From Coleofasciculus chthonoplastes F2-STO-03 (GTDB lineage: Bacteria; Cyanobacteriota; Cyanobacteriia; Cyanobacteriales; Coleofasciculaceae): DNA of 26,594 nt. The DNA lies in NCBI GenBank assembly GCA_040222015.1, contig JAVJWO010000050.1, positions 1 to 26,594 of the forward strand, given 5' to 3'. A program made the position numbers and the translations under genes. The notes under the pieces are model-generated. The model made no database searches, was not told the origin of the DNA, and saw only the letters and a program-made list of their open reading frames with translations. Below are positions 1 through 25,989 of this stretch, in pieces. Each line of letters starts with the position of its first letter. Position 1 is the stretch's first letter.

Positions 1-1044
1 GTCAAAATGCAGATCGCCTTCGGAGAGCCCACCGAAATACAGGTCAACGTCCGTTTCACTGACCCCCTCCAAGGTATCGGGCCGCCATGACGGAGACTGA
101 TCCTTGTCGATCAGGACCGCACGGATGCCTTCGTAGAAATCATGGCCGGCCATGAAATGCTGGCTCATCCGGAATTCCAGCTTCAGGCATGCGTCGAGGT
201 CGAGGTTGCGCGTCCGCTTGAGCTGCTCCAGCGTGACCTTGCAACTGGTTGGCGACATCTTGGACAGGGTTTCCGCAAACGCCTTCGCCCGGTCTCCGCC
301 GTCACGGATAAGCGTCTCGAGGATGGCCTCGACGCTCGGTGCGCCGAAGGTTGCCTTGATGATACTCAGATCGGCCATCAGGGTGGTTACCGGTGCCGAC
401 GTTCCGAAGCGGTCGAGGGTCTCGCGGACCGGAACCTCGGCTTCCACCAGCGCCGTCTTCAGCGCCTCCAGACTGTCGCTGGGTACGAAATGCGTAGCGA
501 GGCCCAGGTGCAACAGATCGTCGGCACCGAGCCGGCGGCCGGTCAGGGCGAGATGGGCAGCCATCGCCGGATCCAGCCGGTTCAGCACATGGCTGGCGCC
601 GACATCCGGAAAGAATCCGATCGCGGTCTCCGGCATCGCCCAAAGAGTGCGTTCGGTGGCGACCTGAAAGCTGCCATGGGCCGACAACCCGACTCCGCCC
701 CCCATGGTGATGCCGTCCATCAACGCGACATAGGGCTTTCCCAATGTGCCGATCAATCGATTGAGGCGGTATTCGTGCCAGAAGAACTGACGGGTCAGGC
801 TGCGGTCCTGAGCACGGCCGGCCTGCGCCACCGCACGCACATCGCCGCCGGCGCAGAAGGCCCTTTCCCCCGCGCCTTCGATGACGACACACGCGATCTC
901 GGAATCGTCCCTCCACGCAACGAGTTGAGGGTGGATCAGTTCGATCATTTCCAGGGTCAACGCGTTGAGGGCGCGCTCATTGCGGAGTGTGATCAGGCCG
1001 CACGTGCCCAGACGCTGGAAAGTGACCGGGTTATTTTCACTCAT
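1..1044 (-). CDS. Enoyl-CoA hydratase/isomerase family protein (3-hydroxyisobutyryl-CoA hydrolase-like); stop codon lies beyond the left edge
   Basis: Manual translation from ATG at 1044: MSENNPVTFQRLG...RALNALTLEMI...AFCAGGDVR...GKPYVALMDGITMGGGVGLS...AMPETAIGFFPDVG...DFYEGIRAVLIDKDQSPSW...GDLHFD. These are crotonase/HIBCH motifs. Absent from the ORF track because no stop falls inside the window. Confidence 0.92.
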   Translation of the reverse strand, partial: MSENNPVTFQRLGTCGLITLRNERALNALTLEMIELIHPQLVAWRDDSEIACVVIEGAGERAFCAGGDVRAVAQAGRAQDRSLTRQFFWHEYRLNRLIGTLGKPYVALMDGITMGGGVGLSAHGSFQVATERTLWAMPETAIGFFPDVGASHVLNRLDPAMAAHLALTGRRLGADDLLHLGLATHFVPSDSLEALKTALVEAEVPVRETLDRFGTSAPVTTLMADLSIIKATFGAPSVEAILETLIRDGGDRAKAFAETLSKMSPTSCKVTLEQLKRTRNLDLDACLKLEFRMSQHFMAGHDFYEGIRAVLIDKDQSPSWRPDTLEGVSETDVDLYFGGLSEGDLHFD

Positions 1045-1248
1045 GGATCCTCGCTCGCGGTCCGAAAAGGGAATTGACGCCGCACTGTAGCGCAGCACAC
1101 CGCAATCACCAGTGTAAGGGAGCGGACATCCGGCTCAGCGTGCGGCCCTCATATCGGTACTTCCGCTGCCCCGAGTGAGCCGGCAGGCTCTGCCGCAGAT
1201 GCCCCAAACCGCACCCATATAAAGAGATCATTATGTATGCAAATAGCA

Positions 1249-1277
1249 TTGACAGCAGCAGCCACAGTGCCTAGTTC
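1249..1277 (+). promoter_or_regulatory. Putative sigma70 promoter for the metY leader
   Basis: Perfect TTGACA at 1249-1254 and a CTAGTTC -10-like element at 1271-1277, which puts the predicted start just before the first riboswitch. Confidence 0.6.
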
Positions 1278-1283
1278 ATGTGT

Positions 1284-1338
1284 CAGCGCCGATTTGAGCC
1301 ACAGCTTGCGGGCGCTTGAGAAATGCAGCTAAAGCGGG
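1284..1338 (+). promoter_or_regulatory. SAM-II (SAM-alpha) riboswitch aptamer 1
   Basis: P1 AGCGCC(1285-1290)/GGCGCT(1311-1316), loop GATTTGAG...AGCTTGC, 3' tail AAATGCAGCTAAAGCGGG. This fits the SAM-II H-type pseudoknot core (AUUU..UUGC..GCUAAA) and lies upstream of a methionine biosynthesis gene. Confidence 0.9.
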
Positions 1339-1361
1339 AGCACGAACAGGCTATCTGATGT

Positions 1362-1398
1362 GCCGCCCAGCTTCCCCCCGCTGCGGCGGCTTTTTTTT
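1362..1398 (+). terminator. Intrinsic terminator (attenuator) in the metY leader
   Basis: Stem GCCGCC-CAGC (1362-1371) / GCTG-c-GGCGGC (1380-1390), followed by T8 (1391-1398). Confidence 0.88.
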
Positions 1399-1457
1399 GT
1401 GCCCGCAAGCGATACGAGAGCCGATCTGCGCCGGTTTGATCCAGCCCACGCCGGATC

Positions 1458-1510
1458 CGCGGCCATTTGAGGGGTAGCTTGCTCCGCGTCATCAACAGCT
1501 AAAGCACTCC
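1458..1510 (+). promoter_or_regulatory. Second SAM-II-like riboswitch aptamer, probably controlling translation
   Basis: P1 CGCGG(1458-1462)/CCGCG(1484-1488). Same core words as aptamer 1: ATTTGAG (1465-1471), AGCTTGC (1476-1482), AGCTAAAGC (1497-1505). Pseudoknot extension GGGGT(1471-1475)/ACTCC(1506-1510). Confidence 0.75.
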
Positions 1511-1561
1511 CGGCAACGGGCCCCCTCGCAGGTTTCAACCGGGCAGCAGGAGGCCCCGAAT

Positions 1562-2896
1562 ATGACCGACCAGACGCAACACCCGCAAAAGCCGCATCCC
1601 GAAACCCTTGTGCTGCATGCCGGACACCGCAGCGACCCGAGCACCGGCTCGGTCGCAGTTCCGATCCACCAGACAACATCCTACCAGTTCGAGAACACCG
1701 AGCACGCCGCCAACCTTTTCTCGCTCAACGAGCTCGGCAACATCTACACCCGGATCATGAACCCGACGACCGCCGTGCTCGAGGAACGCGTCGCCGCGTT
1801 GGAGGGCGGCGCGGCGGCCCTGGCCGTCAGTTCCGGCCAGGCCGCAACCGCGATTGCGGTGCAGAATATCGCGCGCGCCGGCGACAACATCGTCAGTTCC
1901 ACCGATCTGTATGGCGGAACCTGGAACCTGTTCGCCAATACCCTCAACACATTGGGGATCGAGGTCCGTTTCGTCGATCCCGCCGACCCGGAAGCGTTCC
2001 GCGCCGCAACCGATGACAGAACACGCGCCTATTACGGCGAATCGTTGCCCAACCCCAAGCTGCGGGTCTTCCCGATCGGCGAAGTCGCCACAATCGGCCG
2101 GCAGCTTGGCATCCCGCTGATCATCGACAACACGGCGGCCCCGATCATCTGCCGTCCGCTCGACCACGGCGCCGCCATCGTGGTCCATTCCACGACCAAG
2201 TATATCGGCGGCCACGGCACCGCGATCGGCGGCATTGTCGTCGATGGCGGCACCTTCGACTGGACCGCCCATGCCGAGCGCTTCCCGTTGCTCAATGAGC
2301 CCGACCCCAGTTATCACGGCGCGATCTGGACCGAAGCGGCAGCCCCGCTGGGTCCGATCGCATATATCCTGAAGGCACGGGTCACGCTGCAACGCGATCT
2401 GGGTTATGCGCTGAGCCCGTTCAACGCATTCCAATTGATCCAGGGCCTGGAAACCCTGCCGCTTCGCATCCGCGAGCATTGTCGAAATGCTGCTGCCGTT
2501 GCCGATTATCTGAACCACCACCCCGCCGTTGACCGCGTGATCTATCCCGGGCTGCCGGACGACGGCGAAGCCCGGCGACGCGCCGAGACCTATCTGGATG
2601 GTGGCCATGGCGGTCTGGTCGGCTTTGAACTGCGCGGCGGCAAGGAGGCCGGCCAGCGCTTCATCGACGCCCTACGATTGTTCTATCACGTCGCCAATAT
2701 CGGCGATGCACGATCGCTGGCGATCCACCCGGCAAGCACGACCCACTCCCAATTGTCTCCGGAGGAGCAACAGTCAGCCGGCGTGTCCGACGGTTACGTG
2801 CGGCTTTCGATCGGCATAGAGCACATCGACGACATCCTCGGCGACCTCGCACAAGCGCTCACGGCGGCAATCGACACCGGCCGGGCTGCAGCCTGA
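1562..2896 (+). CDS. metY: O-acetylhomoserine aminocarboxypropyltransferase (sulfhydrylase), PLP-dependent
   Basis: Motifs PIHQTTSY, GNIYTRIMNPT, SSGQAA, HSTTKYIGGHG (PLP lysine), VANIGDARSLAIHPASTTHSQL, VRLSIGIE. SD AGGAGG at 1548-1553. SAM riboswitch leader. Confidence 0.96.
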   Translation: MTDQTQHPQKPHPETLVLHAGHRSDPSTGSVAVPIHQTTSYQFENTEHAANLFSLNELGNIYTRIMNPTTAVLEERVAALEGGAAALAVSSGQAATAIAVQNIARAGDNIVSSTDLYGGTWNLFANTLNTLGIEVRFVDPADPEAFRAATDDRTRAYYGESLPNPKLRVFPIGEVATIGRQLGIPLIIDNTAAPIICRPLDHGAAIVVHSTTKYIGGHGTAIGGIVVDGGTFDWTAHAERFPLLNEPDPSYHGAIWTEAAAPLGPIAYILKARVTLQRDLGYALSPFNAFQLIQGLETLPLRIREHCRNAAAVADYLNHHPAVDRVIYPGLPDDGEARRRAETYLDGGHGGLVGFELRGGKEAGQRFIDALRLFYHVANIGDARSLAIHPASTTHSQLSPEEQQSAGVSDGYVRLSIGIEHIDDILGDLAQALTAAIDTGRAAA

Positions 2897-3128
2897 CCCC
2901 TGCACCGCGCCAAAGAGCTCCGAGGGAATACGCTTGCATTCAATGCATGGTCGAACTTGACCGTGTTGAGGACTCTAACTAGTTGATGAGATGAGACCCG
3001 AGCTCTACGGAGAAAACGCGACACGAGAGAAAAATCGTTTCGGATCAGCCCTTCCTTCTTTTGAGCTTCTCGCGAAACAATTGTTCTTGTGGATCGAATG
3101 ACTGTACAGATGTAGAGAATGTGACAGG

Positions 3129-3281
3129 TTACTGGATAGCAATTTTGTTGGTCAGCTTAGGGTTTGTGTTTTCGTTCACGTAGTTACAAGCGTCCGCAAA
3201 CGCCTGAAGAGTTGCCTCTAAGAAGGCAACTTGTTCAGGAGAAGGTTGGAGCTTTACAACTATTGTGAGAACTTGTTTCAT
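3129..3281 (-). mobile_element. tnpB: Truncated 5' end of an IS200/IS605-family tnpB gene (50 aa)
   Basis: Translates as MKQVLTIVVKLQPSPEQVAFLEATLQAFADACNYVNENTNPKLTNKIAIQ*, resembling cyanobacterial TnpB N-termini. Similarity stops abruptly at ~3131. Extended -10 (TG-n-TATAGT) 6 nt before the ATG, and a small GGGG/CCCC hairpin at 3346-3358. Confidence 0.75.
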
Positions 3282-3385
3282 GGCTAAACTATACCACCTC
3301 ATGGGATAGATAGATAGAAAGAAAGAGAGAGATTGAAAATACTTCGGGGATTGACCCCTCGCATTTTCCGCTATCCCCCTACCCC

Positions 3386-4345
3386 TTACTTCGTTGAAGG
3401 GGTAGCCCCTTGCGATTCGGGTGGCAAGGTTCGGCGTAGGGCAGTCTTTTGGGCAAAGTCTTTGCCTTCGGTGAGCAAATAATCGAGAAAGGTGCGAGCG
3501 ACAACGGAGAGTTGTTTGCCGTTGGGGTACACCGCATACCAGTATCGTTCAATCGGGAATTCTTCCACATCTAATATCGTCAGTTGGTTACAGATGCCCT
3601 CTAAGGCTAAGGTATGACGGGATAAAACCGAAATGCCTAACCCTCCCGCGATCGCTTGTTTAATGGCTTCATTGCTGCCTAAGTCAAGCTGCACTTTTAA
3701 CTCAATATCACGGGCGTCGAAGAGTTCTTGCACCGCCTTGCGCGTTCCTGACCCCGGTTCTCTCATAATAAAGGGTTCCTCTGCCAAGCGCTCCATGGGA
3801 ATATTGGTTTCATTCACCAACGGATGATCCGCCGGGGCAATGACGACGAGGGGATTGTCAAGAATGGCTTCGTAGGTAATATCCAGATCCGGGAGTTGAC
3901 TCATTACATACAAGTCATCGGCATTGTCATTCAGACGACCCAGAATATATTCATGATTGGTCACCTGAAGCGACACATCGATTCCTGGATAACGCCGACA
4001 AAATGGACCGAGTAACCGGGGAATAAAATATTTGGCGGTTGTGATCACCGACACCCGCAAGCGTCCCTGTTTCAGACCTTGCAAATCAGCGATGGTCATC
4101 TCAAACTGGTCTAAATTCTCAAATATGGCACGGCAGGTCTTGACGAGTTCCTCTCCGGCTTGGGTAAGATAAAGACGTTTGCCTACTTGGTCAAATAAGG
4201 GAACACCAACCGCTCGGGTAAGCTGTTTCACCTGCATTGACACGGTGGGTTGGGTGAGAAATAGTTCTTCGGCTGCACGAGTAAAACTATTATGTCGAGC
4301 AACGGCTTCAAAGACTTTGAGCTGATGCAGCGTGGCTTGCTTCAA
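3386..4345 (-). CDS. cmpR: LysR-type regulator, CbbR subfamily (CmpR-like)
   Basis: HTH TLHQLKVFEAVARHNSFTRAAEELFLTQPTVSMQVKQL, ITTAKYFIPRLLGPFC, MREPGSGTR, LGSNEAIKQAIAGGLGISVLS. TTG start with SD GGAGGAG. Lies downstream of ccmO. CmpR versus NdhR is judged from motif recall and context. Confidence 0.8.
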   Translation of the reverse strand: MKQATLHQLKVFEAVARHNSFTRAAEELFLTQPTVSMQVKQLTRAVGVPLFDQVGKRLYLTQAGEELVKTCRAIFENLDQFEMTIADLQGLKQGRLRVSVITTAKYFIPRLLGPFCRRYPGIDVSLQVTNHEYILGRLNDNADDLYVMSQLPDLDITYEAILDNPLVVIAPADHPLVNETNIPMERLAEEPFIMREPGSGTRKAVQELFDARDIELKVQLDLGSNEAIKQAIAGGLGISVLSRHTLALEGICNQLTILDVEEFPIERYWYAVYPNGKQLSVVARTFLDYLLTEGKDFAQKTALRRTLPPESQGATPSTK

Positions 4346-4360
4346 CGATACTCCTCCTTG

Positions 4361-4398
4361 ATAGGAATAATTTATAGATTATAGTCTATGATTTCTAT
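4361..4398 (-). promoter_or_regulatory. CbbR-family LysR operator-like motifs (possible autoregulation)
   Basis: ATAG-N8-CTAT at 4374-4389 with overlapping ATAG/CTAT half-sites, directly upstream of the regulator's start. Confidence 0.55.
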
Positions 4399-4673
4399 CA
4401 GAACAATGTATTTTTTCTATGGTAACTCTGAGTTAAGATTTCAGATAACACCAAACAAGTGACAGTCTTCCTTCCAGCTCGCGTTGCCCCCTAACCAATT
4501 TGTATGTTCTGGAATAAGCGGTTTGGTTTTAGCCTGTACCTACAGGAAAGCTTAATCCGGTCATCGCTGGAATTGGGTGCAACGCCTTTTTTGTTAAAGG
4601 CAGGAGGCAGGAGGATTATTACATGAATTTACATGATTTTTTTGAGCTTTTAATTTTGTCTCCCCCAGCTTCC

Positions 4674-4697
4674 AGACGTAGCATGCTACGTCTCTAC
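4674..4697. repeat. REP-like perfect palindrome
   Basis: AGACGTAGCATGCTACGTCT (20-bp palindrome) plus CTAC tail, a GTAG-family REP type, between ccmO and cmpR. Confidence 0.7.
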
Positions 4698-4732
4698 ATG
4701 CTTCCTCAGCTCTGCTAATCGGCAATGTAATA

Positions 4733-5512
4733 TCAGAAGTCAATTTCCTTAGTCGGCGCGGGCAATTTATCTAAATCAGGGAGTTCGACTAATTCTTTCT
4801 CTGTTTCCTTGACCTCGACAGGTAATCTTAGGGGTTCAGGGGTTTCTTCCTCTTCAATGAAGTAACTTGCCAAGGGTAGGGCTTGTTCGAGATCCTCTAA
4901 CGGTCGAGTAATCACGGTAACAGCAACCAGTTCCCCAATCCGTTGTGCTTCTGCCATACCCACTTGCAGCGCCATGGCAACTTCTGCTACCCGACCCCGG
5001 ATAATAACTGTACATAAGCCCGCGCCAATGGTTTCGTAACCCGTCAGTTCCACATTTGCTGCTTTGAGCATAGCATCCGCTGCACCGACGATCGCGGGAA
5101 AGCCACGAGTTTCTAGAAGTCCGAGGGCTTGGGAACTATGGCGCGATCGCAGTTGCTGTTGCGCCTCTTCTAGCAAATGAGAACCCAGAGGTAAAACAAC
5201 CTCCAAGTTGGGAAACGGTCGAGGAATTACCAAGGAGGACAATAACCGACCTTCTCGTTTAGCATGTTCAACCCCAGCTTGCACCGCAATCCGCACTTCT
5301 GCTGTAGCGCCGCGCACAATTGCCGTACAGTGACCACTACCAATTTTTTCAAATCCTATCAATGTCACTCCAGACGCCTTGAGCATCGCATCAGCCGTAC
5401 TCACAATCACGGGAAAACTGAGCGTAGACACCAAACCCAAAGAGGAGTGACGAAAGCGATTCCGTTGAGTAGAGGGGGCGTGGGGGATAATTCCAGGGTT
5501 GTATGACTCCAT
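4733..5512 (-). CDS. ccmO: Carboxysome tandem BMC-domain shell protein CcmO
   Basis: Two BMC domains (LGLVSTLSFP..ADAMLKA; LGLLETRGFPA..ADAMLKAA), last gene of ccmKKLMN. Confidence 0.95.
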   Translation of the reverse strand: MESYNPGIIPHAPSTQRNRFRHSSLGLVSTLSFPVIVSTADAMLKASGVTLIGFEKIGSGHCTAIVRGATAEVRIAVQAGVEHAKREGRLLSSLVIPRPFPNLEVVLPLGSHLLEEAQQQLRSRHSSQALGLLETRGFPAIVGAADAMLKAANVELTGYETIGAGLCTVIIRGRVAEVAMALQVGMAEAQRIGELVAVTVITRPLEDLEQALPLASYFIEEEETPEPLRLPVEVKETEKELVELPDLDKLPAPTKEIDF

Positions 5513-5675
5513 AGCTCAGCTCTCCATGTCGTTGTTGGCAGTTAAGTGTTGCCTCTAATCCAGTCTAAGAAACCCAACACCTCAACGCTAACAACTTATC
5601 GGTATAACCTATCTCAGCGCTGATCTTAACACTACAGGAAGCGGCTAAATAACTCCCCTGCATCAGTAGCCAAAA

Positions 5676-6311
5676 TTATTGATGATAGGGAAATAGAGTT
5701 TTGAGAATCCGGTCTACACTCCCTTGCCCATAGACGGAGTTTTCCGCCGGGGAGGTGGCAGATTCAGGTTCCTCTTCCGCCGTAGACTCACTGGAACGTC
5801 TCTGGGAATCAACAGGTGGGTTGACATACTGCTGTTCTGGCTGTTCAGGAGATGGAGATGGAGGAGAGGCGATCGGCTTAGGTGCATGATTCACCGCTTC
5901 TGGGGGATTAGAGCTATCAACCGGAGGAGTCGCTGGTGCACAAACCTCGGCAACTTGACGCCCCACATCACCCACAACAGACCCCGCAGGCACAACGGTT
6001 AATCGCTCAATCGAAGCATTCCAAATCGTGGTCAGTGAACCGATACAAGCATTTGCCCCAATTGTCCCGTGACCCACGATCAATACACCTGTACCCAGAT
6101 TGACACCGGCTTCTATCTTTAACGTCCCTTGGTCAGCGTGCAGAATTGAACCTGCACCAATACAAACACCTGCCGCGATAATCATTTGACTCTCAGGATT
6201 AGCCCGCAAAATTACTCCCGATGAAATCACAGCACTCGGATCAATGGTTACATCACCTTGCACGTAGACATGAGAGTAACTGCTCAATGGTAGTGGCAGG
6301 GGCAAATGCAT
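5676..6311 (-). CDS. ccmN: Carboxysome assembly protein CcmN
   Basis: Hexapeptide beta-helix N-terminus, Pro/Ser-rich linker, C-terminal encapsulation peptide VYGQGSVDRILKTLFP. Confidence 0.95.
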   Translation of the reverse strand: MHLPLPLPLSSYSHVYVQGDVTIDPSAVISSGVILRANPESQMIIAAGVCIGAGSILHADQGTLKIEAGVNLGTGVLIVGHGTIGANACIGSLTTIWNASIERLTVVPAGSVVGDVGRQVAEVCAPATPPVDSSNPPEAVNHAPKPIASPPSPSPEQPEQQYVNPPVDSQRRSSESTAEEEPESATSPAENSVYGQGSVDRILKTLFPYHQ

Positions 6312-19026: not shown

Positions 19027-22000
19027 CTAGATAACGGCAAAATCCCAAAAAGTGAGACTGTTGGCTTGCACATCAATGAGTGAGGCTAAGAGTTCATCAC
19101 TCTCGGTAATGCTAATTAGGGTATTGTTAGCATTAGTGTCTGTGCCTTGGGTAATGGTGAGATTATCAAAGGTCAAACCATCTAATCCCAGATAATCCGT
19201 ACCAGCGACAAAGTTGAAAATAGTATCGCTTCCAGCACCAGGCGCCAGTACGAACATATCACGACCACTGTTACCGTACAGTGTGTCAGAACCTGTTCCG
19301 CCGTCTAGGACATTATCACCCTCACCTGCGTAAAGCTGGTCGTTGCCAGTACCACCCTTTAACTCATTGTTACCAGCACCACCATAGAGCAGGTCATCCC
19401 CGTTACCACCGATAAGGTAATCATCTCCGGCTTCTCCTAGCAAGGTATCGTTACCATTACCGCCCCACAGGGCATCATTGCCAGCGCCTGCATCAAGGAT
19501 GTCATTGCCGTCGTCTCCGTAAAGCTGGTCAACACCGTCACCCCCCTTGAGCTGGTCATCGCCCAAGCCACCTTCGAGGTAGTCATTACCAGCCCCGGCA
19601 TCAAGGATATCGTTACCGTCTTGACCGTAAACCTGGTCATTACCATTACCTGCGGTAAGCTGGTCATCACCTGACCCACCTTCGAGGTAATCATCGCCAG
19701 CACCTGCATCAAGGGTATCGTTACCGTCTTGACCGTAAAGGAGATCGTTACCATCACCTCCGATTAGCTGGTCATCGCTGTCTCCACCTTTGAGGTTATC
19801 ATTACCGTTACCTCCATCGAGGGTGTCGCTACCGTCTTGACCATAGAGGAAATCATTTCCATCTTCCCCGGTTAACTGGTCATTGCCAATACCCCCTTCC
19901 AGGTAGTCATTCCCAGCATTTCCATTCAGGATGTCATTCCCGTCACTGCCATAGAGTTGGTCATTGCCGTCACCTCCCTTGAGCTGGTCATCACCGGATT
20001 CTCCATCCAGGTAATCATTGCCTGCTTGCCCTAAGAGCAAATCAGCATCAGCACCACCCCAGAGTTGGTCATCGCCTGTGCCACCATCTAAATAGTCGCG
20101 ACCTGTCTGACCGTAGAGTTGGTCATCGCCACTATTACCCTCAAGTCGGTCATCCCCTGTGCCACCATCTAAGTAGTCTTGACCTGCCTGACCGTAGAGG
20201 CGATCGCTACCATCCTGACCATAGATGAAGTCATCACCTGTGCCACCATCAAGAAAGTCGTGACCTGCACCGCCATCGAGTATATCATAGCCTTGTTGAC
20301 CGTAGAGTCGGTCATTCCCGTCATTGCCTTCTAGCCAATCATCTCCTGTGCCGCCATCAAGGTAGTCATTACCCGCGTTACCCGCCAGCATATCATCACC
20401 TTGTTGACCGTAGAGGCGGTCATTATCGTCACCGCCGGAGAGCATATCATTTCCTGACCCACCCTCTAGGTAGTCATCACCTGCTTGTCCATTGAGGGTA
20501 TCTTCCCCGCTACCGCCGAAGAGGGCATCATTTCCGGAGTCGCCATTGAGGGTATCTTGACCGCTTTGACCATAGAGTTGGTCGTTACCGTCGCCACCAT
20601 TGAGCAGGTCATTTCTTGACCCACCATCAAGGAGGTCATTTCCGGCTTCTCCATTGAGGGTATCTTGACCGCTTTGACCATAGAGTCGATCGTTCCCATC
20701 GCCACCATCAAGCAGGTCATCACCTGACCCACCTTCAGAAAGGTCATTACCTGCCTCTCCATCAAGGGTGTCATTACCGTTTTTACCATAAAGTTGGTCA
20801 TCCCCGTCACCACCAGTGAGGAGGTCATTATCGGTTCCGCCATCAAGGAGATCGTCCCCTGTTCCGCCATCAAGGGTATCAACACCTTTTTTACCATAGA
20901 GTTGGTCATTACCTTCACTACCTGCTAGCTGGTCATCACCTGACCCACCGTCGAGGTAGTCATTGCCAGCCTCTCCATTGAGGGTATCGTTACCTTTTTG
21001 ACCGTAGAGTTGGTCATTACCGTCCCCGCCAAAGAGTTGGTCATCGCCCAACCCACCTTTAAGTAGGTCAACACCTGCTTGACCAAAGAGTTGGTCATTA
21101 CCTTTTCCGGCGTAGAGGCGATCATTCCCTGTGCCACCATCGAGCAAGTCGTCGCCAGCTTTTGCGTAAATCAGGTCATTGCCACCCAATCCACTCAGGA
21201 TATTATTTAAGTTATCACCAATGAGCAGATCCTCGAATTCTGAGCCTTCTAGGTTTTCAATGTCACTCAGGCGATCGCCTTTAGCATCTCCCGCCCAGCC
21301 TTTACCTGCGGTGAGACTGACAGCGACGCGGGTGGCGGAAGTGAAATAGGAAGCGGTGTCATTACCGGCACCACCATTGAGGCGATCGGCATCCGTACCG
21401 CCAACGAGGAAATCGTCACCGTTTTCGCCAAAGAGAGTGTCTTTGCCTGCTTCGCCAAAGATGATGTCGTTGCCATTTCTGGCGTTAACAACGTCATCCC
21501 CATCTCCGGCGTGGATGATATTGGCATTGGCATCGCCGATAATTTCATCATTGAAGGTGGAGCCGATAACATTTTCAATGTTATGAATTTGGTCGGTGTT
21601 GTCAAAGCCGTCATTAGCTTGGTTTTGCTCTAAGTTAACCTTGACCGAGCCTGGGTCGCGGCGGTAGCTGACAGTATCAATACCATTGCCTCCGTCAAGG
21701 TGGTCATTTCCTGCATTACCGACTAGCAGGTCATTTCCTGACTTACTTTCGATGCGGTTATCTAAGCTGTTGCCAATCAGAACATCATCATACTCAGAAC
21801 CAATGATATTTTCTAGATTCTGTAGGGTGTCTGTGGTGCCGAAGCCATCTTTAGCCGTGCCTGGGTTGATGGTAAAGTTGGGTTCTGTGTCGGTAGGAAT
21901 GAGGCGGGTAGAAACTATAGTTGTGTGGAAAGAGCCGCCGAGATTTTGATAGTTCTGTGCTTCGTCTATATTAACGACTACACCGCTGGGCGAGTTATCG

Positions 22001-25000
22001 TAGCTGACGGTATCGATTTCAGTACCACCGTCAATTAGGTCGTCGCCTGCTTCTCCCATCAGGAAGTCATCGCCAGCTTCTCCATATAAGGTGTCATTGC
22101 CAGCATTGCCATTTAGGTTATCAGCGCCAGTACCACCTGCTAGTTCGTCATTGCCAGCATCACCTTTGAGAATGTCATCACCATCTTCCCCGAAGAGTTT
22201 GTCATTCCCCTCACCGCCATTGAGAGTATCATTGCCTAGACCCCCATAGAGTTGGTCAATGCCAGTACCACCTGCTAGTTCGTCATCGCCAGCATCACCT
22301 TTGAGAATATCATCGCCTTCTTCTCCGAAGAGTTTGTCATTACCCTCATTGCCATTGAGGGAGTCATTACCTGTACCACCGTAGAGTTGGTCGTTGTCAG
22401 TACCACCTGCTAGTTCGTCATCGCCAGCATCACCCTTGAGAATGTCATCGCCATCTTCACCGAAGAGTTTGTCATTGTCCTCATCACCATTGAGAATGTC
22501 ATCGCCCGAACCTCCATAGAGTTGGTCGCTGCCAGCATCACCTGTTAACTCATCATTACCAGCATCGCCTTTGAGAATGTCATCACCATCTTCTCCGAAG
22601 AGTTTGTCATTGCCCTCACCGCCATTGAGAGAATCATTGCCCGAACCTCCATAGAGTTGGTCGCTGCCAGCATCACCTGTTAACTCATCATTACCAGCAT
22701 CACCTTTGAGAATGTCATCGCCTTCTTCACCAAAGAGTTTGTCATTGCCCTCACCGCCATTGAGAGAATCATTGCCCTCACCGCCATTGAGGGAATCATT
22801 GTCCTCGCCACCAGCAAGGATATCATCATCGATGCCGCCAGAGATGGTATCCGCCCCAGCTTCACCGCCTAGCGAGTCATTACCCTCATTGCCAAAGAGA
22901 ATATCATTGCCTTCTCCCGCTACGATAAGGTCATTCCCAGCCTTCCCATAAAGTTCGTCACTACCATCACCGCCAAATAGTCGGTCATTGCCTGAGCCGC
23001 CGTCGAGGAAGTCCTGTCCTGAACTACCATAGAGTTCGTCATTGTCGTCACCACCGAATAGTTGATCATCTCCTAAACCTCCATCGAGAAGATCATCTCC
23101 CGCTTCACCCTGTAAGGAATCATTTCCTTGGTCGCCATACAGCCTATCGTTGCTACTACCGCCGTTGAGAGTATCGTCGCCGCCACGACCAATAAGTCTA
23201 TCTGCACCCTCGTCTCCAAATAAGCGATCATCTTTAAAACCTCCATAAAGGTTATCGTCACCAGAACCGCCATGAAGTTCTGCAACAGCATCGGCTTCAA
23301 TAGAAATTAAGTCATTTCCTGTATCGGCGTAAGCGATAATCTTGCTAACACCGGAGTAAGTCTCCTGTTCTCCAAATGCCGAGACTATTACATCAGAGGT
23401 GATATTGAAGTTTTCATCAATAATATCTTTGCTGACATTCCGCTCATTGGCAAAAAGCCCCATATTGAGCCGAAGTTCGCCATTGCCCAGAGCTGTTGCT
23501 AGATTAGGTGGCAAATCGCTAATACTATCGCAGTTATGGGCGAAATTGAAAAGTTCTATCGTGGCAATGTTCCATTCTTCTCGATCAACGACCTTGTCGA
23601 AATCGCCAGTTAAAATTCCAAAAAAACCTTTAATCGGATTTAAAGTAATGTGTTCGATGTAGAGGTCAGCTCCCGCATAGATTCCGCCTTCAATATCAAA
23701 GATACAATCGGCTCCATTGCTGATGTTAGTCGCAATGTCTTGAGGTCTAACCTTGCCATCGGGAGTCGGGTCGTGAAGGTCAAAGTTAGCGATACCTTCA
23801 ATGCGAACTCGACCACCACCATTAAAAAAAACCGGAAGACCCACATTACCATCGGCGAACAAACCAGCGTTTAAAGTAAACTCAGGTTGATTGTTGCGAT
23901 TGTCTACAAAAAAACCTTCAAAAGGCTGACCCTTGACTAATCCCTCTGTATCGTAACCAAATGAGAGTCCGGGAACATTAAACCCCGCGTGTCCTCCAAA
24001 GCTAATCGTGACTGGCGGAACTGCCCATACGGGAATCGTGGCAAATATTTGATCACCCGTATTAGCTGACATTCCAGGCAACTGAAATTGGAAAAGGTCT
24101 ACGTCTGTCTTCCCAAAAAATAGGCTGAATGCTTGAGTTGGGTTTTCCAAAATTGGAAACTTTAGTCCGCCTCCTAATAGGCTTCCGGCTTCTGTAAAGA
24201 AGTTGTCACCACCACTATTTTTTGCCTGAGCGAGTGGGCTAGTTTTTGGACTAATAAGCGTATTAAGTTCTACTTCGGCTAGATTAGAAACAGTTCGGAT
24301 GTCTACTCCATTGTCTTGAAGGTTAAAGGCACCCAAGTCAATAAAGAGGTTTTCACCTATATTGGTAGTGTCGGCAGCGTTAACAACATTAGAAAAATCA
24401 GCTAGTGCCTCAATAAAATCCGTATTGGCACCATACAATTTAGCTATATTTAACAGATTGAGATGAACATCAAATTGATCTAGAACTGGCAAGTCAGTCG
24501 TTAAAACATCGAGCAGCGGATCGAACGGCTTGGTTACTTTTTGAATTTCTTCGACAATCGGCTTGGCAAAATCACTAAAGAACGATCCCAGATCTAGCTG
24601 TACCTTCTCGAAGGCGACTGTGGGTAAGCTTCCCGTTAGAGGCTTAGTTGGATCGATCGTTTCATTAAATCCCCAACCTAGATTGAAATCAGAAAGAATT
24701 CTTGGCAACCCTTTTTCTCCATTGATGCTTGTAGTCAAGCCAAGCTTGATATTGGCGTTGGCATTAAGCTTGATGTCAAGACCAAGAGATGTAAGTTCTG
24801 AAAGCGTCAGTTTAGTATCTAAATCATCTGAGTCTTTCAGGTCAATCCCAAAAGAACCATTGAAGCTAGTGCCTTTGTCAGCAAGGTCAAGCTGTAGAAA
24901 ACCTAACTTACCTGTGCCGTCAAACTTAATTGAAGATGTTGTTAAACCCAGATTGAAATTATCAGAAGAGGTGTCAACAAAAAATTCTCCATTGTTTTTG

Positions 25001-25989
25001 CTAACACCAAAGGTAAATCCTAAACCATAACCTAAACTGACATTGGCTTGACCCTTGATATCGAATTGAAGCCCAGGAAGACCTAAGTCAGCTTCTAAGG
25101 AAGGATTAAATGAATCTTGAGCATTAGCTGGGTCGAGGGTTAAGTTGAACGTAATATCATTACCACTCGTATCAACTGGAATAATTCCTTGGATTAAGTT
25201 TCCCAGCTTAGTATTGAGAGCCTCACTGATATCCTGAGCTGTTGGATTAGGTAGAGTTCTCAGTGGGTCGAGGGCTGATTTGATGGAGGTTCGCAAATCA
25301 CCTAAAAACTCTACTGCATCGTCAGTGTTGAGATTGTCACCCACTACTGGCAGTTTCCCACTCAACACACGGAGCTTGAGGTCATTCTGGAGAGTAGATA
25401 AAAACTGCTCAAGCCCATCACCTACCTGAACCGCTAGATTCTCAGCCTGCTCTATTTGAAGAGCCTTGCCATCCAGCACAACTGTCGCCCGGTCATCCTC
25501 AGCTTTTAATGCCTGAAGTGCAGATTCATTCAACTGCACACCTTGAGCCAAAGCTGAAAAAATAGCTCCTTCATCCCCAGGAGCATCTAATACGTTAATT
25601 TTTGAATCTATAGAGTGACCAATTTCCTCCAAAATAACATCCGTGATCGCCTGAATATTCGACCCATTCTCTGCCATATATTCTTGCGACAAATAAATGG
25701 TATTGGTATCAGCGGAAAAAGCTCCGTTCGCACCATTTATTTCTGCTGCTGAACGAATTTCAATCCCTGGAAAGTCCTCAAACTCACTAGCCGCCCATTG
25801 CTGACGCAAGCCTTCTAGCTTATCAGTATCAAAGCTATCCCCGAAGGCAAGAGTCGCTTTGCTTAAAAAATCTTCATCAGTCGCGATCGCATTCAGCAAC
25901 CTCCGTACTGATGCAGTCGCTTCATACCAAGCAAATTGCGTAGAATTATCTAGGAACTCAGCACCGATTAGATCAAAATTATTGTTCAT
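19027..25989 (-). CDS. Very large RTX (hemolysin-type Ca2+-binding nonapeptide repeat) secreted or surface protein, 2320 aa
   Basis: Two long blocks of GGxGxDxLx repeats separated by D-T-(V/A)-S-Y...IEN(I/V/L)xGS modules. N-terminal GAFS..NTIYLS..LEEIGH domain. C-terminus GSDTIFNF...LTFWDFAVI resembles a T1SS signal. Confidence 0.92.
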   Translation of the reverse strand: MNNNFDLIGAEFLDNSTQFAWYEATASVRRLLNAIATDEDFLSKATLAFGDSFDTDKLEGLRQQWAASEFEDFPGIEIRSAAEINGANGAFSADTNTIYLSQEYMAENGSNIQAITDVILEEIGHSIDSKINVLDAPGDEGAIFSALAQGVQLNESALQALKAEDDRATVVLDGKALQIEQAENLAVQVGDGLEQFLSTLQNDLKLRVLSGKLPVVGDNLNTDDAVEFLGDLRTSIKSALDPLRTLPNPTAQDISEALNTKLGNLIQGIIPVDTSGNDITFNLTLDPANAQDSFNPSLEADLGLPGLQFDIKGQANVSLGYGLGFTFGVSKNNGEFFVDTSSDNFNLGLTTSSIKFDGTGKLGFLQLDLADKGTSFNGSFGIDLKDSDDLDTKLTLSELTSLGLDIKLNANANIKLGLTTSINGEKGLPRILSDFNLGWGFNETIDPTKPLTGSLPTVAFEKVQLDLGSFFSDFAKPIVEEIQKVTKPFDPLLDVLTTDLPVLDQFDVHLNLLNIAKLYGANTDFIEALADFSNVVNAADTTNIGENLFIDLGAFNLQDNGVDIRTVSNLAEVELNTLISPKTSPLAQAKNSGGDNFFTEAGSLLGGGLKFPILENPTQAFSLFFGKTDVDLFQFQLPGMSANTGDQIFATIPVWAVPPVTISFGGHAGFNVPGLSFGYDTEGLVKGQPFEGFFVDNRNNQPEFTLNAGLFADGNVGLPVFFNGGGRVRIEGIANFDLHDPTPDGKVRPQDIATNISNGADCIFDIEGGIYAGADLYIEHITLNPIKGFFGILTGDFDKVVDREEWNIATIELFNFAHNCDSISDLPPNLATALGNGELRLNMGLFANERNVSKDIIDENFNITSDVIVSAFGEQETYSGVSKIIAYADTGNDLISIEADAVAELHGGSGDDNLYGGFKDDRLFGDEGADRLIGRGGDDTLNGGSSNDRLYGDQGNDSLQGEAGDDLLDGGLGDDQLFGGDDNDELYGSSGQDFLDGGSGNDRLFGGDGSDELYGKAGNDLIVAGEGNDILFGNEGNDSLGGEAGADTISGGIDDDILAGGEDNDSLNGGEGNDSLNGGEGNDKLFGEEGDDILKGDAGNDELTGDAGSDQLYGGSGNDSLNGGEGNDKLFGEDGDDILKGDAGNDELTGDAGSDQLYGGSGDDILNGDEDNDKLFGEDGDDILKGDAGDDELAGGTDNDQLYGGTGNDSLNGNEGNDKLFGEEGDDILKGDAGDDELAGGTGIDQLYGGLGNDTLNGGEGNDKLFGEDGDDILKGDAGNDELAGGTGADNLNGNAGNDTLYGEAGDDFLMGEAGDDLIDGGTEIDTVSYDNSPSGVVVNIDEAQNYQNLGGSFHTTIVSTRLIPTDTEPNFTINPGTAKDGFGTTDTLQNLENIIGSEYDDVLIGNSLDNRIESKSGNDLLVGNAGNDHLDGGNGIDTVSYRRDPGSVKVNLEQNQANDGFDNTDQIHNIENVIGSTFNDEIIGDANANIIHAGDGDDVVNARNGNDIIFGEAGKDTLFGENGDDFLVGGTDADRLNGGAGNDTASYFTSATRVAVSLTAGKGWAGDAKGDRLSDIENLEGSEFEDLLIGDNLNNILSGLGGNDLIYAKAGDDLLDGGTGNDRLYAGKGNDQLFGQAGVDLLKGGLGDDQLFGGDGNDQLYGQKGNDTLNGEAGNDYLDGGSGDDQLAGSEGNDQLYGKKGVDTLDGGTGDDLLDGGTDNDLLTGGDGDDQLYGKNGNDTLDGEAGNDLSEGGSGDDLLDGGDGNDRLYGQSGQDTLNGEAGNDLLDGGSRNDLLNGGDGNDQLYGQSGQDTLNGDSGNDALFGGSGEDTLNGQAGDDYLEGGSGNDMLSGGDDNDRLYGQQGDDMLAGNAGNDYLDGGTGDDWLEGNDGNDRLYGQQGYDILDGGAGHDFLDGGTGDDFIYGQDGSDRLYGQAGQDYLDGGTGDDRLEGNSGDDQLYGQTGRDYLDGGTGDDQLWGGADADLLLGQAGNDYLDGESGDDQLKGGDGNDQLYGSDGNDILNGNAGNDYLEGGIGNDQLTGEDGNDFLYGQDGSDTLDGGNGNDNLKGGDSDDQLIGGDGNDLLYGQDGNDTLDAGAGDDYLEGGSGDDQLTAGNGNDQVYGQDGNDILDAGAGNDYLEGGLGDDQLKGGDGVDQLYGDDGNDILDAGAGNDALWGGNGNDTLLGEAGDDYLIGGNGDDLLYGGAGNNELKGGTGNDQLYAGEGDNVLDGGTGSDTLYGNSGRDMFVLAPGAGSDTIFNFVAGTDYLGLDGLTFDNLTITQGTDTNANNTLISITESDELLASLIDVQANSLTFWDFAVI

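Follow-up and report, generated by a model that had tools for sequence, protein, structure and literature searches.

The leader of a metY-type gene near one end of a contig assigned to Coleofasciculus chthonoplastes F2-STO-03 contains two SAM-II-type aptamers in tandem, which we think probably form a two-tier OFF switch, with a SAM-II terminator in front and a strand-swapping SAM-II-type aptamer behind it that would mask the ribosome site. The window, by which we mean the whole stretch of 26,594 nt that was analyzed, is the entire contig. The tandem is real and conserved, and the architecture itself is already catalogued: an earlier, sequence-only reading of this DNA had raised the possibility of novelty, but the accessible text of Sherlock et al. 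2022 (PMC9481103) describes 44 tandem SAM-II riboswitches, in some of which a terminator comes first and RBS control follows. What is added here is the subtype of the second copy with its strand-swap platform, a candidate operator, and a warning about a probably chimeric contig.

A pattern for the shared core matched the window exactly twice, at 1292-1335 and 1465-1505 (173 nt apart), and gave no match in 100 shuffles. The sequence-only reading had reported two cores about 170 nt apart, each closed by a different P1 helix, and both points held. Aptamer 1 (1285..1338, plus strand) has P1 at 1285-1290/1311-1316, UUGC at 1306-1309, GCUAA at 1328-1332 and a weak P2a. Aptamer 2 (1458..1510, plus strand) has P1 at 1458-1462/1484-1488, a loop G-run at 1469-1475, UUGC at 1479-1482, GCUAA at 1498-1502 and a proximal P2a strand at 1506-1510. 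In both copies UUGC and GCUAA form the pseudoknot core with AUUU as third strand, an arrangement invariant in homologs, though it was part of the search pattern. P1 occurs as several compensatory types in copy 1 across tandem loci and shows double changes at 3 of 5 pairs in the copy-2 family. Complementary pseudoknot extensions had been claimed for both copies. The claim stands for copy 2, where 1471-1475/1506-1510 is a clean 5-bp helix with covariation at the level of the family, and less clearly for copy 1, where the extension is weak (three pairs and a bulged A). Of these three pairs, only the first is shared by all 29 tandem loci, and the second is kept in 16 of them. Judged from these sequences, both aptamers would be expected to bind SAM.

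At the gathering threshold (36 bits for SAM_alpha), Rfam gave no match in the window. The check with the SAM_alpha and SAM_V models that had been proposed came out in part: SAM_alpha (RF00521) found both copies below its cut-off, copy 1 at 30.6 bits (E 7.5e-5) and copy 2 at 13.8 bits (E 2.8), and SAM_V was absent from the Rfam listing of the window at E up to 10. Matches to Bp2_287, MIR1437 and SNORD57 in the window lay far under cut-off and were rejected. When Rfam was run on 20 loci, 8 of 17 first copies and 0 of 20 copies of the second type reached the cut-off, which bears out the suspicion that standard models miss copy 2. By sequence, copy 2 belongs to a SAM-II subtype that never reached the Rfam cut-off among the 20 examined. 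A model built from 54 homologs with the window left out (R1) scored copy 2, as did its pair counts, in favor of an aptamer: it was the top match in both window and genome at 63 bits (E 3.3e-15), a score that is partly circular because the core motif was in the homolog search pattern. A loose core scanner gave 56 matches genome-wide and was therefore applied only beside genes. The fold of the whole leader gave an uninformative z of -0.28 against shuffles.

Homologs were found with a pattern taken from the window's own core, so invariance of the core is partly built in. The scan for copy-2 cores matched at least 123 stretches, 80 of which were analyzed. A canonical core lay 113-162 nt upstream of the copy-2 core in 28 of these 80 loci, and the copy-2-type subtype stood alone, without a first copy, in the remaining 52. 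Among the 80 best metY loci, four of which had too little upstream DNA, the three best carried both aptamers within about 250 nt. The family layout 3' of the core is a hairpin, a C-run, a spacer and a ribosome site, with the start codon typically 46-62 nt on. Downstream ORFs were scanned at 40 loci and had a Pfam match in 28: 18 in methionine, cysteine or sulfur assimilation, 7 OsmC-like and 3 others. The 18 comprised 7 Cys/Met PLP enzymes, 6 CysG, 2 tetrapyrrole methylases, and one each of sulfite reductase, PAPS reductase and homoserine succinyltransferase. Through the copy-2 subtype, siroheme synthase, sulfite reductase, OsmC-like and metZ/metY genes would come under SAM control in lineages (Rhodospirillales) for which the accessible part of a 2014 survey that used the Rfam model lists no SAM_alpha regulon (PMC4239095). 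Two canonical-type SAM-II cores in tandem were also seen in gammaproteobacterial records, one from Halomonas (L144:444-640) and one from a MAG (L158, minus strand).

The gene behind the leader encodes a metY-type O-acetylhomoserine aminocarboxypropyltransferase of 444 aa (1562..2896, plus strand; TIGR01326, 613.6 bits against a cut-off of 495.1). Its start codon lies 56 nt past core 2, close to the roughly 50 nt given before, and the Shine-Dalgarno sequence AGGAGG (1548..1553, plus strand) lies 8 nt 5' of it. A divergent 3-hydroxyisobutyryl-CoA hydrolase gene (1..1044, minus strand; PRK05617, 400.5 bits against a cut-off of 274) reaches the contig end. The putative promoter (1249..1277, plus strand) has a -35 box TTGACA at 1249-1254 and a weak candidate -10 box at 1272-1277. 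A strict-consensus promoter scan of the window returned nothing; in every one of the 29 tandem loci, the window included, TTGAC lies 40-44 nt 5' of the loop of the first aptamer. Between the two cores is an intrinsic terminator (1362..1398, plus strand) with a stem at 1362-1371/1380-1390, a hairpin (1362-1390) of -20.0 kcal/mol and eight U at 1391-1398, so the strong terminator described earlier is present; a simple terminator scan missed it. A hairpin and a U-rich run lie between the cores in all 29 tandem loci, and are weak in one.

In the first tier we propose, transcription would start directly 5' of aptamer 1. Without SAM, the 3' strand of aptamer 1 would pair into the terminator arms during synthesis and polymerase would read through; with SAM, the pseudoknot would keep that strand and the terminator would form. 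The terminator arms are able to pair with the aptamer-1 3' strand as an antiterminator, and for a transcript ending at 1385 this antiterminator is the best fold. At equilibrium, imposing the aptamer constraint left terminator formation almost unchanged (0.98 vs 0.99). The modeled tier-1 switch would have to be kinetic because the completed terminator wins in either case. One further element was considered and rejected: a 12-bp helix behind the U-run (1304-1315/1399-1410, -27 kcal/mol) could lock aptamer 1 open after read-through, but its equivalents in 28 homologs range from -4.6 to -19.4 kcal/mol, and it was excluded from the mechanism because homologs show no match.

In the second tier, aptamer 2 on the read-through RNA would act at a distance by a strand swap. 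Behind core 2, constrained folding places a small hairpin with a GCAA loop (1509..1520, plus strand), which overlaps both the proximal P2a strand and the anti-Shine-Dalgarno strand. It is followed by a switching strand (1518..1529, plus strand) whose distal C-run at 1522-1527 can pair with either the loop G-run (-12.9 kcal/mol) or the Shine-Dalgarno region (-18.6 kcal/mol). Without SAM, the small hairpin would form and the loop G-run would pair with the distal C-run, an arrangement that would keep the anti-Shine-Dalgarno strand occupied and leave the ribosome site open. With SAM, the loop G-run would take the proximal strand as its partner, in the register usual for SAM-II, and the hairpin would lose its 5' arm; its opening would free the anti-Shine-Dalgarno strand to pair over the Shine-Dalgarno sequence. 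We infer from alignments and folding which pseudoknot register is SAM-bound, and likewise all of the regulation.

Covariation is the main evidence for this tier, and it is in this form that translational control by the second copy, as originally proposed, finds support. In an alignment of 54 sequences, the core and P1 were paired in 99.5% of cells, with double changes at 4 pairs, a result as high in 0 of 500 shuffles. On the same alignment, the alternative structure (hairpin plus distal helix) was paired in 92.7%, with double changes at 9 pairs. In homologs of the 1509-1520 hairpin, 5 of 6 pairs were changed on both sides, and the duplexes of the switching strand show three-way covariation in the family. 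Across 91 distinct cores, a C as the last loop base was accompanied by a proximal G in 76 of 76 cases, and a U by a proximal A in 14 of 15 and a distal A in 13 of 15; both 3' positions lay outside the homolog search pattern. The U-A cases span perhaps 3-4 lineages rather than 15 independent events, and the window's own distal base is G. The automatic choice of distal base was wrong in at least 5 of 7 C-G-A rows, where it took a loop match instead. This covariation around the loop G-run suggests that SAM shifts the pseudoknot helix, opens the small hairpin and frees the anti-Shine-Dalgarno strand.

We also compared duplexes between each anti-Shine-Dalgarno strand and its own or a swapped Shine-Dalgarno sequence, using 67 of 81 loci (start codons were set by rule, 12 loci had no start and 2 duplicates were removed). 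Own pairs were stronger than swapped ones at 44 loci (-19.0 vs -15.5 kcal/mol; 0 of 10000 permutations) and at the 23 loci of the window's branch (-12.9 vs -11.6 kcal/mol, p 0.013), and a coding control gave no difference between own and swapped duplexes. The window's own duplex ranked only in the best 21% of swapped pairs. At 58 of 67 loci the distal state left the Shine-Dalgarno sequence more accessible than the proximal state did (0.83 vs 0.18 in the window); in these folds, blocking the proximal strand closed the site, and blocking the distal run opened it. Because swapped tails retained part of the opening effect (0.15 of 0.23; 0.08 of 0.22), this test is partly generic. Unconstrained folds, made by a method that cannot handle pseudoknots, kept most of the Shine-Dalgarno sequence paired even in the free state (0.22-0.32 vs 0.18). 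Family covariation favors control of RBS access by the second copy through an anti-RBS strand; the window's own duplex is unremarkable, and the free folds are ambiguous on this point.

A different use of the same platform was seen in Micavibrio-type genomes (L354, L356, L359, L363, L367), in which the second-type aptamer appears to drive a terminator rather than an anti-Shine-Dalgarno helix. With the proximal strand blocked, the switching strand of these loci built a hairpin before a U-run in 3 of the 4 folded, and the freed strand would therefore be an OFF element.

Three other accounts of copy 2 were weighed against the strand swap. Both aptamers could be OFF switches with the ON state of copy 2 formed by the 5' flank and the P1 5' strand pairing the switching strand, with P1 opened and the distal match secondary. 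A GGAC/GGAU-type 5' flank is common, and flank-to-strand duplexes averaged -15.4 kcal/mol against -14.8 for swapped pairs (p 0.008); but the two averages differ little, the duplex in the window reaches a weak -10.7, and the joint change of distal and loop base is left without explanation, which makes this account unlikely. Still less probable, in our estimate, is that SAM is bound by copy 2 in its distal register, the hairpin then being inserted into the pseudoknot, and that SAM in this way keeps the site open. This would place an ON switch behind an OFF terminator and give a band-pass response. The distal helix is indeed the longer one, with 4-6 pairs in 79 of 79 sequences against 3 proximal pairs in 69 of 79; its geometry is compatible with the pseudoknot, and by estimate the two states differ little in energy. 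However, single SAM-II aptamers use the proximal register, in which pairs one to three are conserved in 79, 78 and 78 of 79 sequences, and an ON switch makes little sense at the 52 of 80 loci where the subtype alone precedes biosynthetic genes.

The window's copy 2 might also be a decaying or non-regulatory relic, with metY controlled by aptamer 1 (and SahR) alone, an account to which we give equally little credence. Its low Rfam score, the shortest platform hairpin, a C where AUUU is usually preceded by G, and unconstrained folding without a clear switch would all fit decay. Yet all pocket bases are intact, the U-A change in copy 2 restores pairing, the subtype model recognizes it well, and 25 of 79 homologs likewise have C or A before AUUU. 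The simplest reading remains an OFF switch that works by strand swap; the ON-switch and 5'-flank accounts are less likely.

Among known systems, the leader most resembles the "bi-mechanism" doublets of Sherlock et al. 2022, in which a terminator follows the first of two SAM-II aptamers and the second is predicted to act on RBS access; for the second unit, the accessible part of that paper (PMC9481103) supplies neither organisms and sequences nor a mechanism. The catalogued tandem is only predicted there, and the present leader is a concrete instance in which predictions at the level of single bases can be tested for both tiers. As had been pointed out, the SAM-II/SAM-V tandem of Ca. Pelagibacter ubique is likewise described as a transcription tier followed by a translation tier with the same ligand pocket (PMC9481103, PMC6061858, PMC11508383), and its linker is reported to inactivate one aptamer (PMC11508383). 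Pelagibacter SAM-V has a P3 hairpin and holds the Shine-Dalgarno sequence inside a 2-bp P2a, whereas copy 2 lacks P3 and uses a separate strand. We rejected a SAM-V identity for copy 2: its 9-nt linker (1489-1497) has no hairpin, SAM_V was unlisted, and its P2a strand is at 1506-1510 but the Shine-Dalgarno sequence at 1548-1553. Because the site is some 40 nt further on, copy 2 could not cover it inside its own pseudoknot in the manner of SAM-V.

The leader shares with the SAM-II class RF00521 (Corbino et al. 2005, PMC1273637) P1 and a pseudoknot, a promoter just before P1, a terminator and methionine genes; it differs in that the copy-2 group falls under the cut-off and has a conserved hairpin and a second partner strand behind the core. 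The Sinorhizobium meliloti metA SAM-II (Scheuer et al. 2022, PMC9373788) also combines translation control with a terminator in the leader, but is described there as one aptamer with the Shine-Dalgarno sequence directly behind and a terminator not predicted to be switched. The sequence-only reading held that SAM-II usually acts on translation; the accessible text of two sources runs the other way, calling most SAM-II riboswitches transcriptional (PMC6061858, PMC2258182). What was accessible of PMC12452182 and PMC8877191 held nothing decisive for this comparison. We found no description of the strand-swap platform in the literature searched, most subscription papers and the supplement of PMC9481103 being outside its scope.

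Upstream of the promoter, 12 bp before the -35 box, lies a 20-bp imperfect palindrome (1217..1236) that is a candidate SahR-type operator. It is identical at 18 of 20 positions to a palindrome directly before a gene encoding an ArsR-type HTH and a methyltransferase, a match seen in 0 of 100 shuffles, and this reference palindrome stands directly 5' of such a gene in 4 of 5 alphaproteobacterial genomes. No similar palindrome was found before the other 28 tandem loci. No model named SahR matched the ArsR-HTH and methyltransferase gene, which we take to be SahR from its domain make-up and motif letters. The assembly contains no full-length SahR-like regulator gene, only single-domain matches. According to PMC4239095, SahR belongs to the ArsR family and responds to SAH; its site is a 20-bp palindrome, and the core regulon includes the regulator's gene. 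A comparable combination is SahR with SAM_alpha at hom-metXC of Oceanicaulis alexandrii, where a regulator with a 20-bp palindrome is known to overlap in control with a SAM-II riboswitch (Leyn et al. 2014, PMC4239095); unlike in that regulon, the present site would precede two riboswitches, and the SahR targets that the accessible part of the paper names do not include metY. Here the candidate operator probably supplies a further tier of control, at the level of DNA, but it could serve the divergent gene instead. With some hesitation, at rather less than even odds, we propose that copy 2 represents an undescribed SAM-II subtype, widespread in Rhodospirillales/Kiloniellales-type alphaproteobacteria and under the Rfam cut-off, that swaps its P2a partner, and that here it would be part of three-tier control (SahR, termination, translation) reading SAH and SAM. 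The same proposal holds that one loop G-run with two covarying partners would lead to an anti-Shine-Dalgarno helix or to a terminator.

The DNA that carries this leader appears to be foreign to the contig. The earlier assignment to a GC-rich alphaproteobacterium is right for the first 3.1 kb or so but not for the rest of the window, which is cyanobacterial: bases 1-3000 have 62-63% GC, and the remaining window has 41-52%, with the beta-carboxysome and CO2-uptake genes of a cyanobacterium. In the 7.7 Mb assembly, 5 of 15127 one-kb windows exceed 0.60 GC, all in the first 3 kb of this contig, and these 3 kb are the most deviant of 2559 pieces in tetranucleotide use (3.81; mean 0.98, sd 0.19). 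No match to 1-3120 was found in 51 genomes of the family. The closest metY relatives, at 78-82%, are in Kiloniellaceae/Rhodospirillales-type genomes. The alphaproteobacterial segment (1..3088) is followed at the junction by a multi-copy cyanobacterial repeat (3131..3427) with many copies in the genome, several at contig ends, and copies in same-genus genomes. Pieces of 1-3088 occur with 0-1 differences in three public runs from two studies, one possibly related to the source sample. Since a public-run contig covers 1235-1649 with no difference, the leader sequence is not an assembly error.

The segment is very probably a chimeric join, most likely made in assembly, of DNA from a co-cultured alphaproteobacterium to the cyanobacterial contig. 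A true and very recent insertion into the cyanobacterial chromosome beside a mobile repeat is improbable by comparison. The segment is contiguous in the assembly, the adjoining repeat could be a mobile element, and stated contamination is 0.16%; against these stand the lack of amelioration (GC 0.63 vs 0.45), the position at a contig end, a junction repeat that ends many other contigs, identical pieces in other public runs, one of which extends past base 1, and the missing full-length SahR-like gene. Some searches were not counted as evidence: positions 3200-6000 were uncovered in public runs X1, X2 and X4, gaps that prove nothing, and no contig bridging 3088-3131 was among the matches listed for the public runs. 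Run X3 had no near-identical piece of 1-3088 among its matches listed. Separately, a plasmid search with 2900-3430 gave no match. The segment is not to be read as a cyanobacterial riboswitch, and it is a warning that an assembly rated so low in contamination probably holds a chimeric contig.

Several features of the cyanobacterial part were noted in passing. In a LysR (CbbR-like) gene at 3386-4345 (minus strand), the conserved 3' tail is replaced by the junction repeat. The ABC permease gene that follows LysR in L090, within a flank common to 8 same-genus genomes, has no close match in the assembly, a gap or a deletion. At 19027-25989 (minus strand) lies a gene for a 2320-aa protein with many RTX-type calcium-binding repeats, under the cut-off of every family matched. 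Between 4733 and 15398, ccmK-like, L, M, N and O beta-carboxysome genes diverge from ndhF3, ndhD-type and chp CO2-uptake genes, an ordinary cyanobacterial layout.
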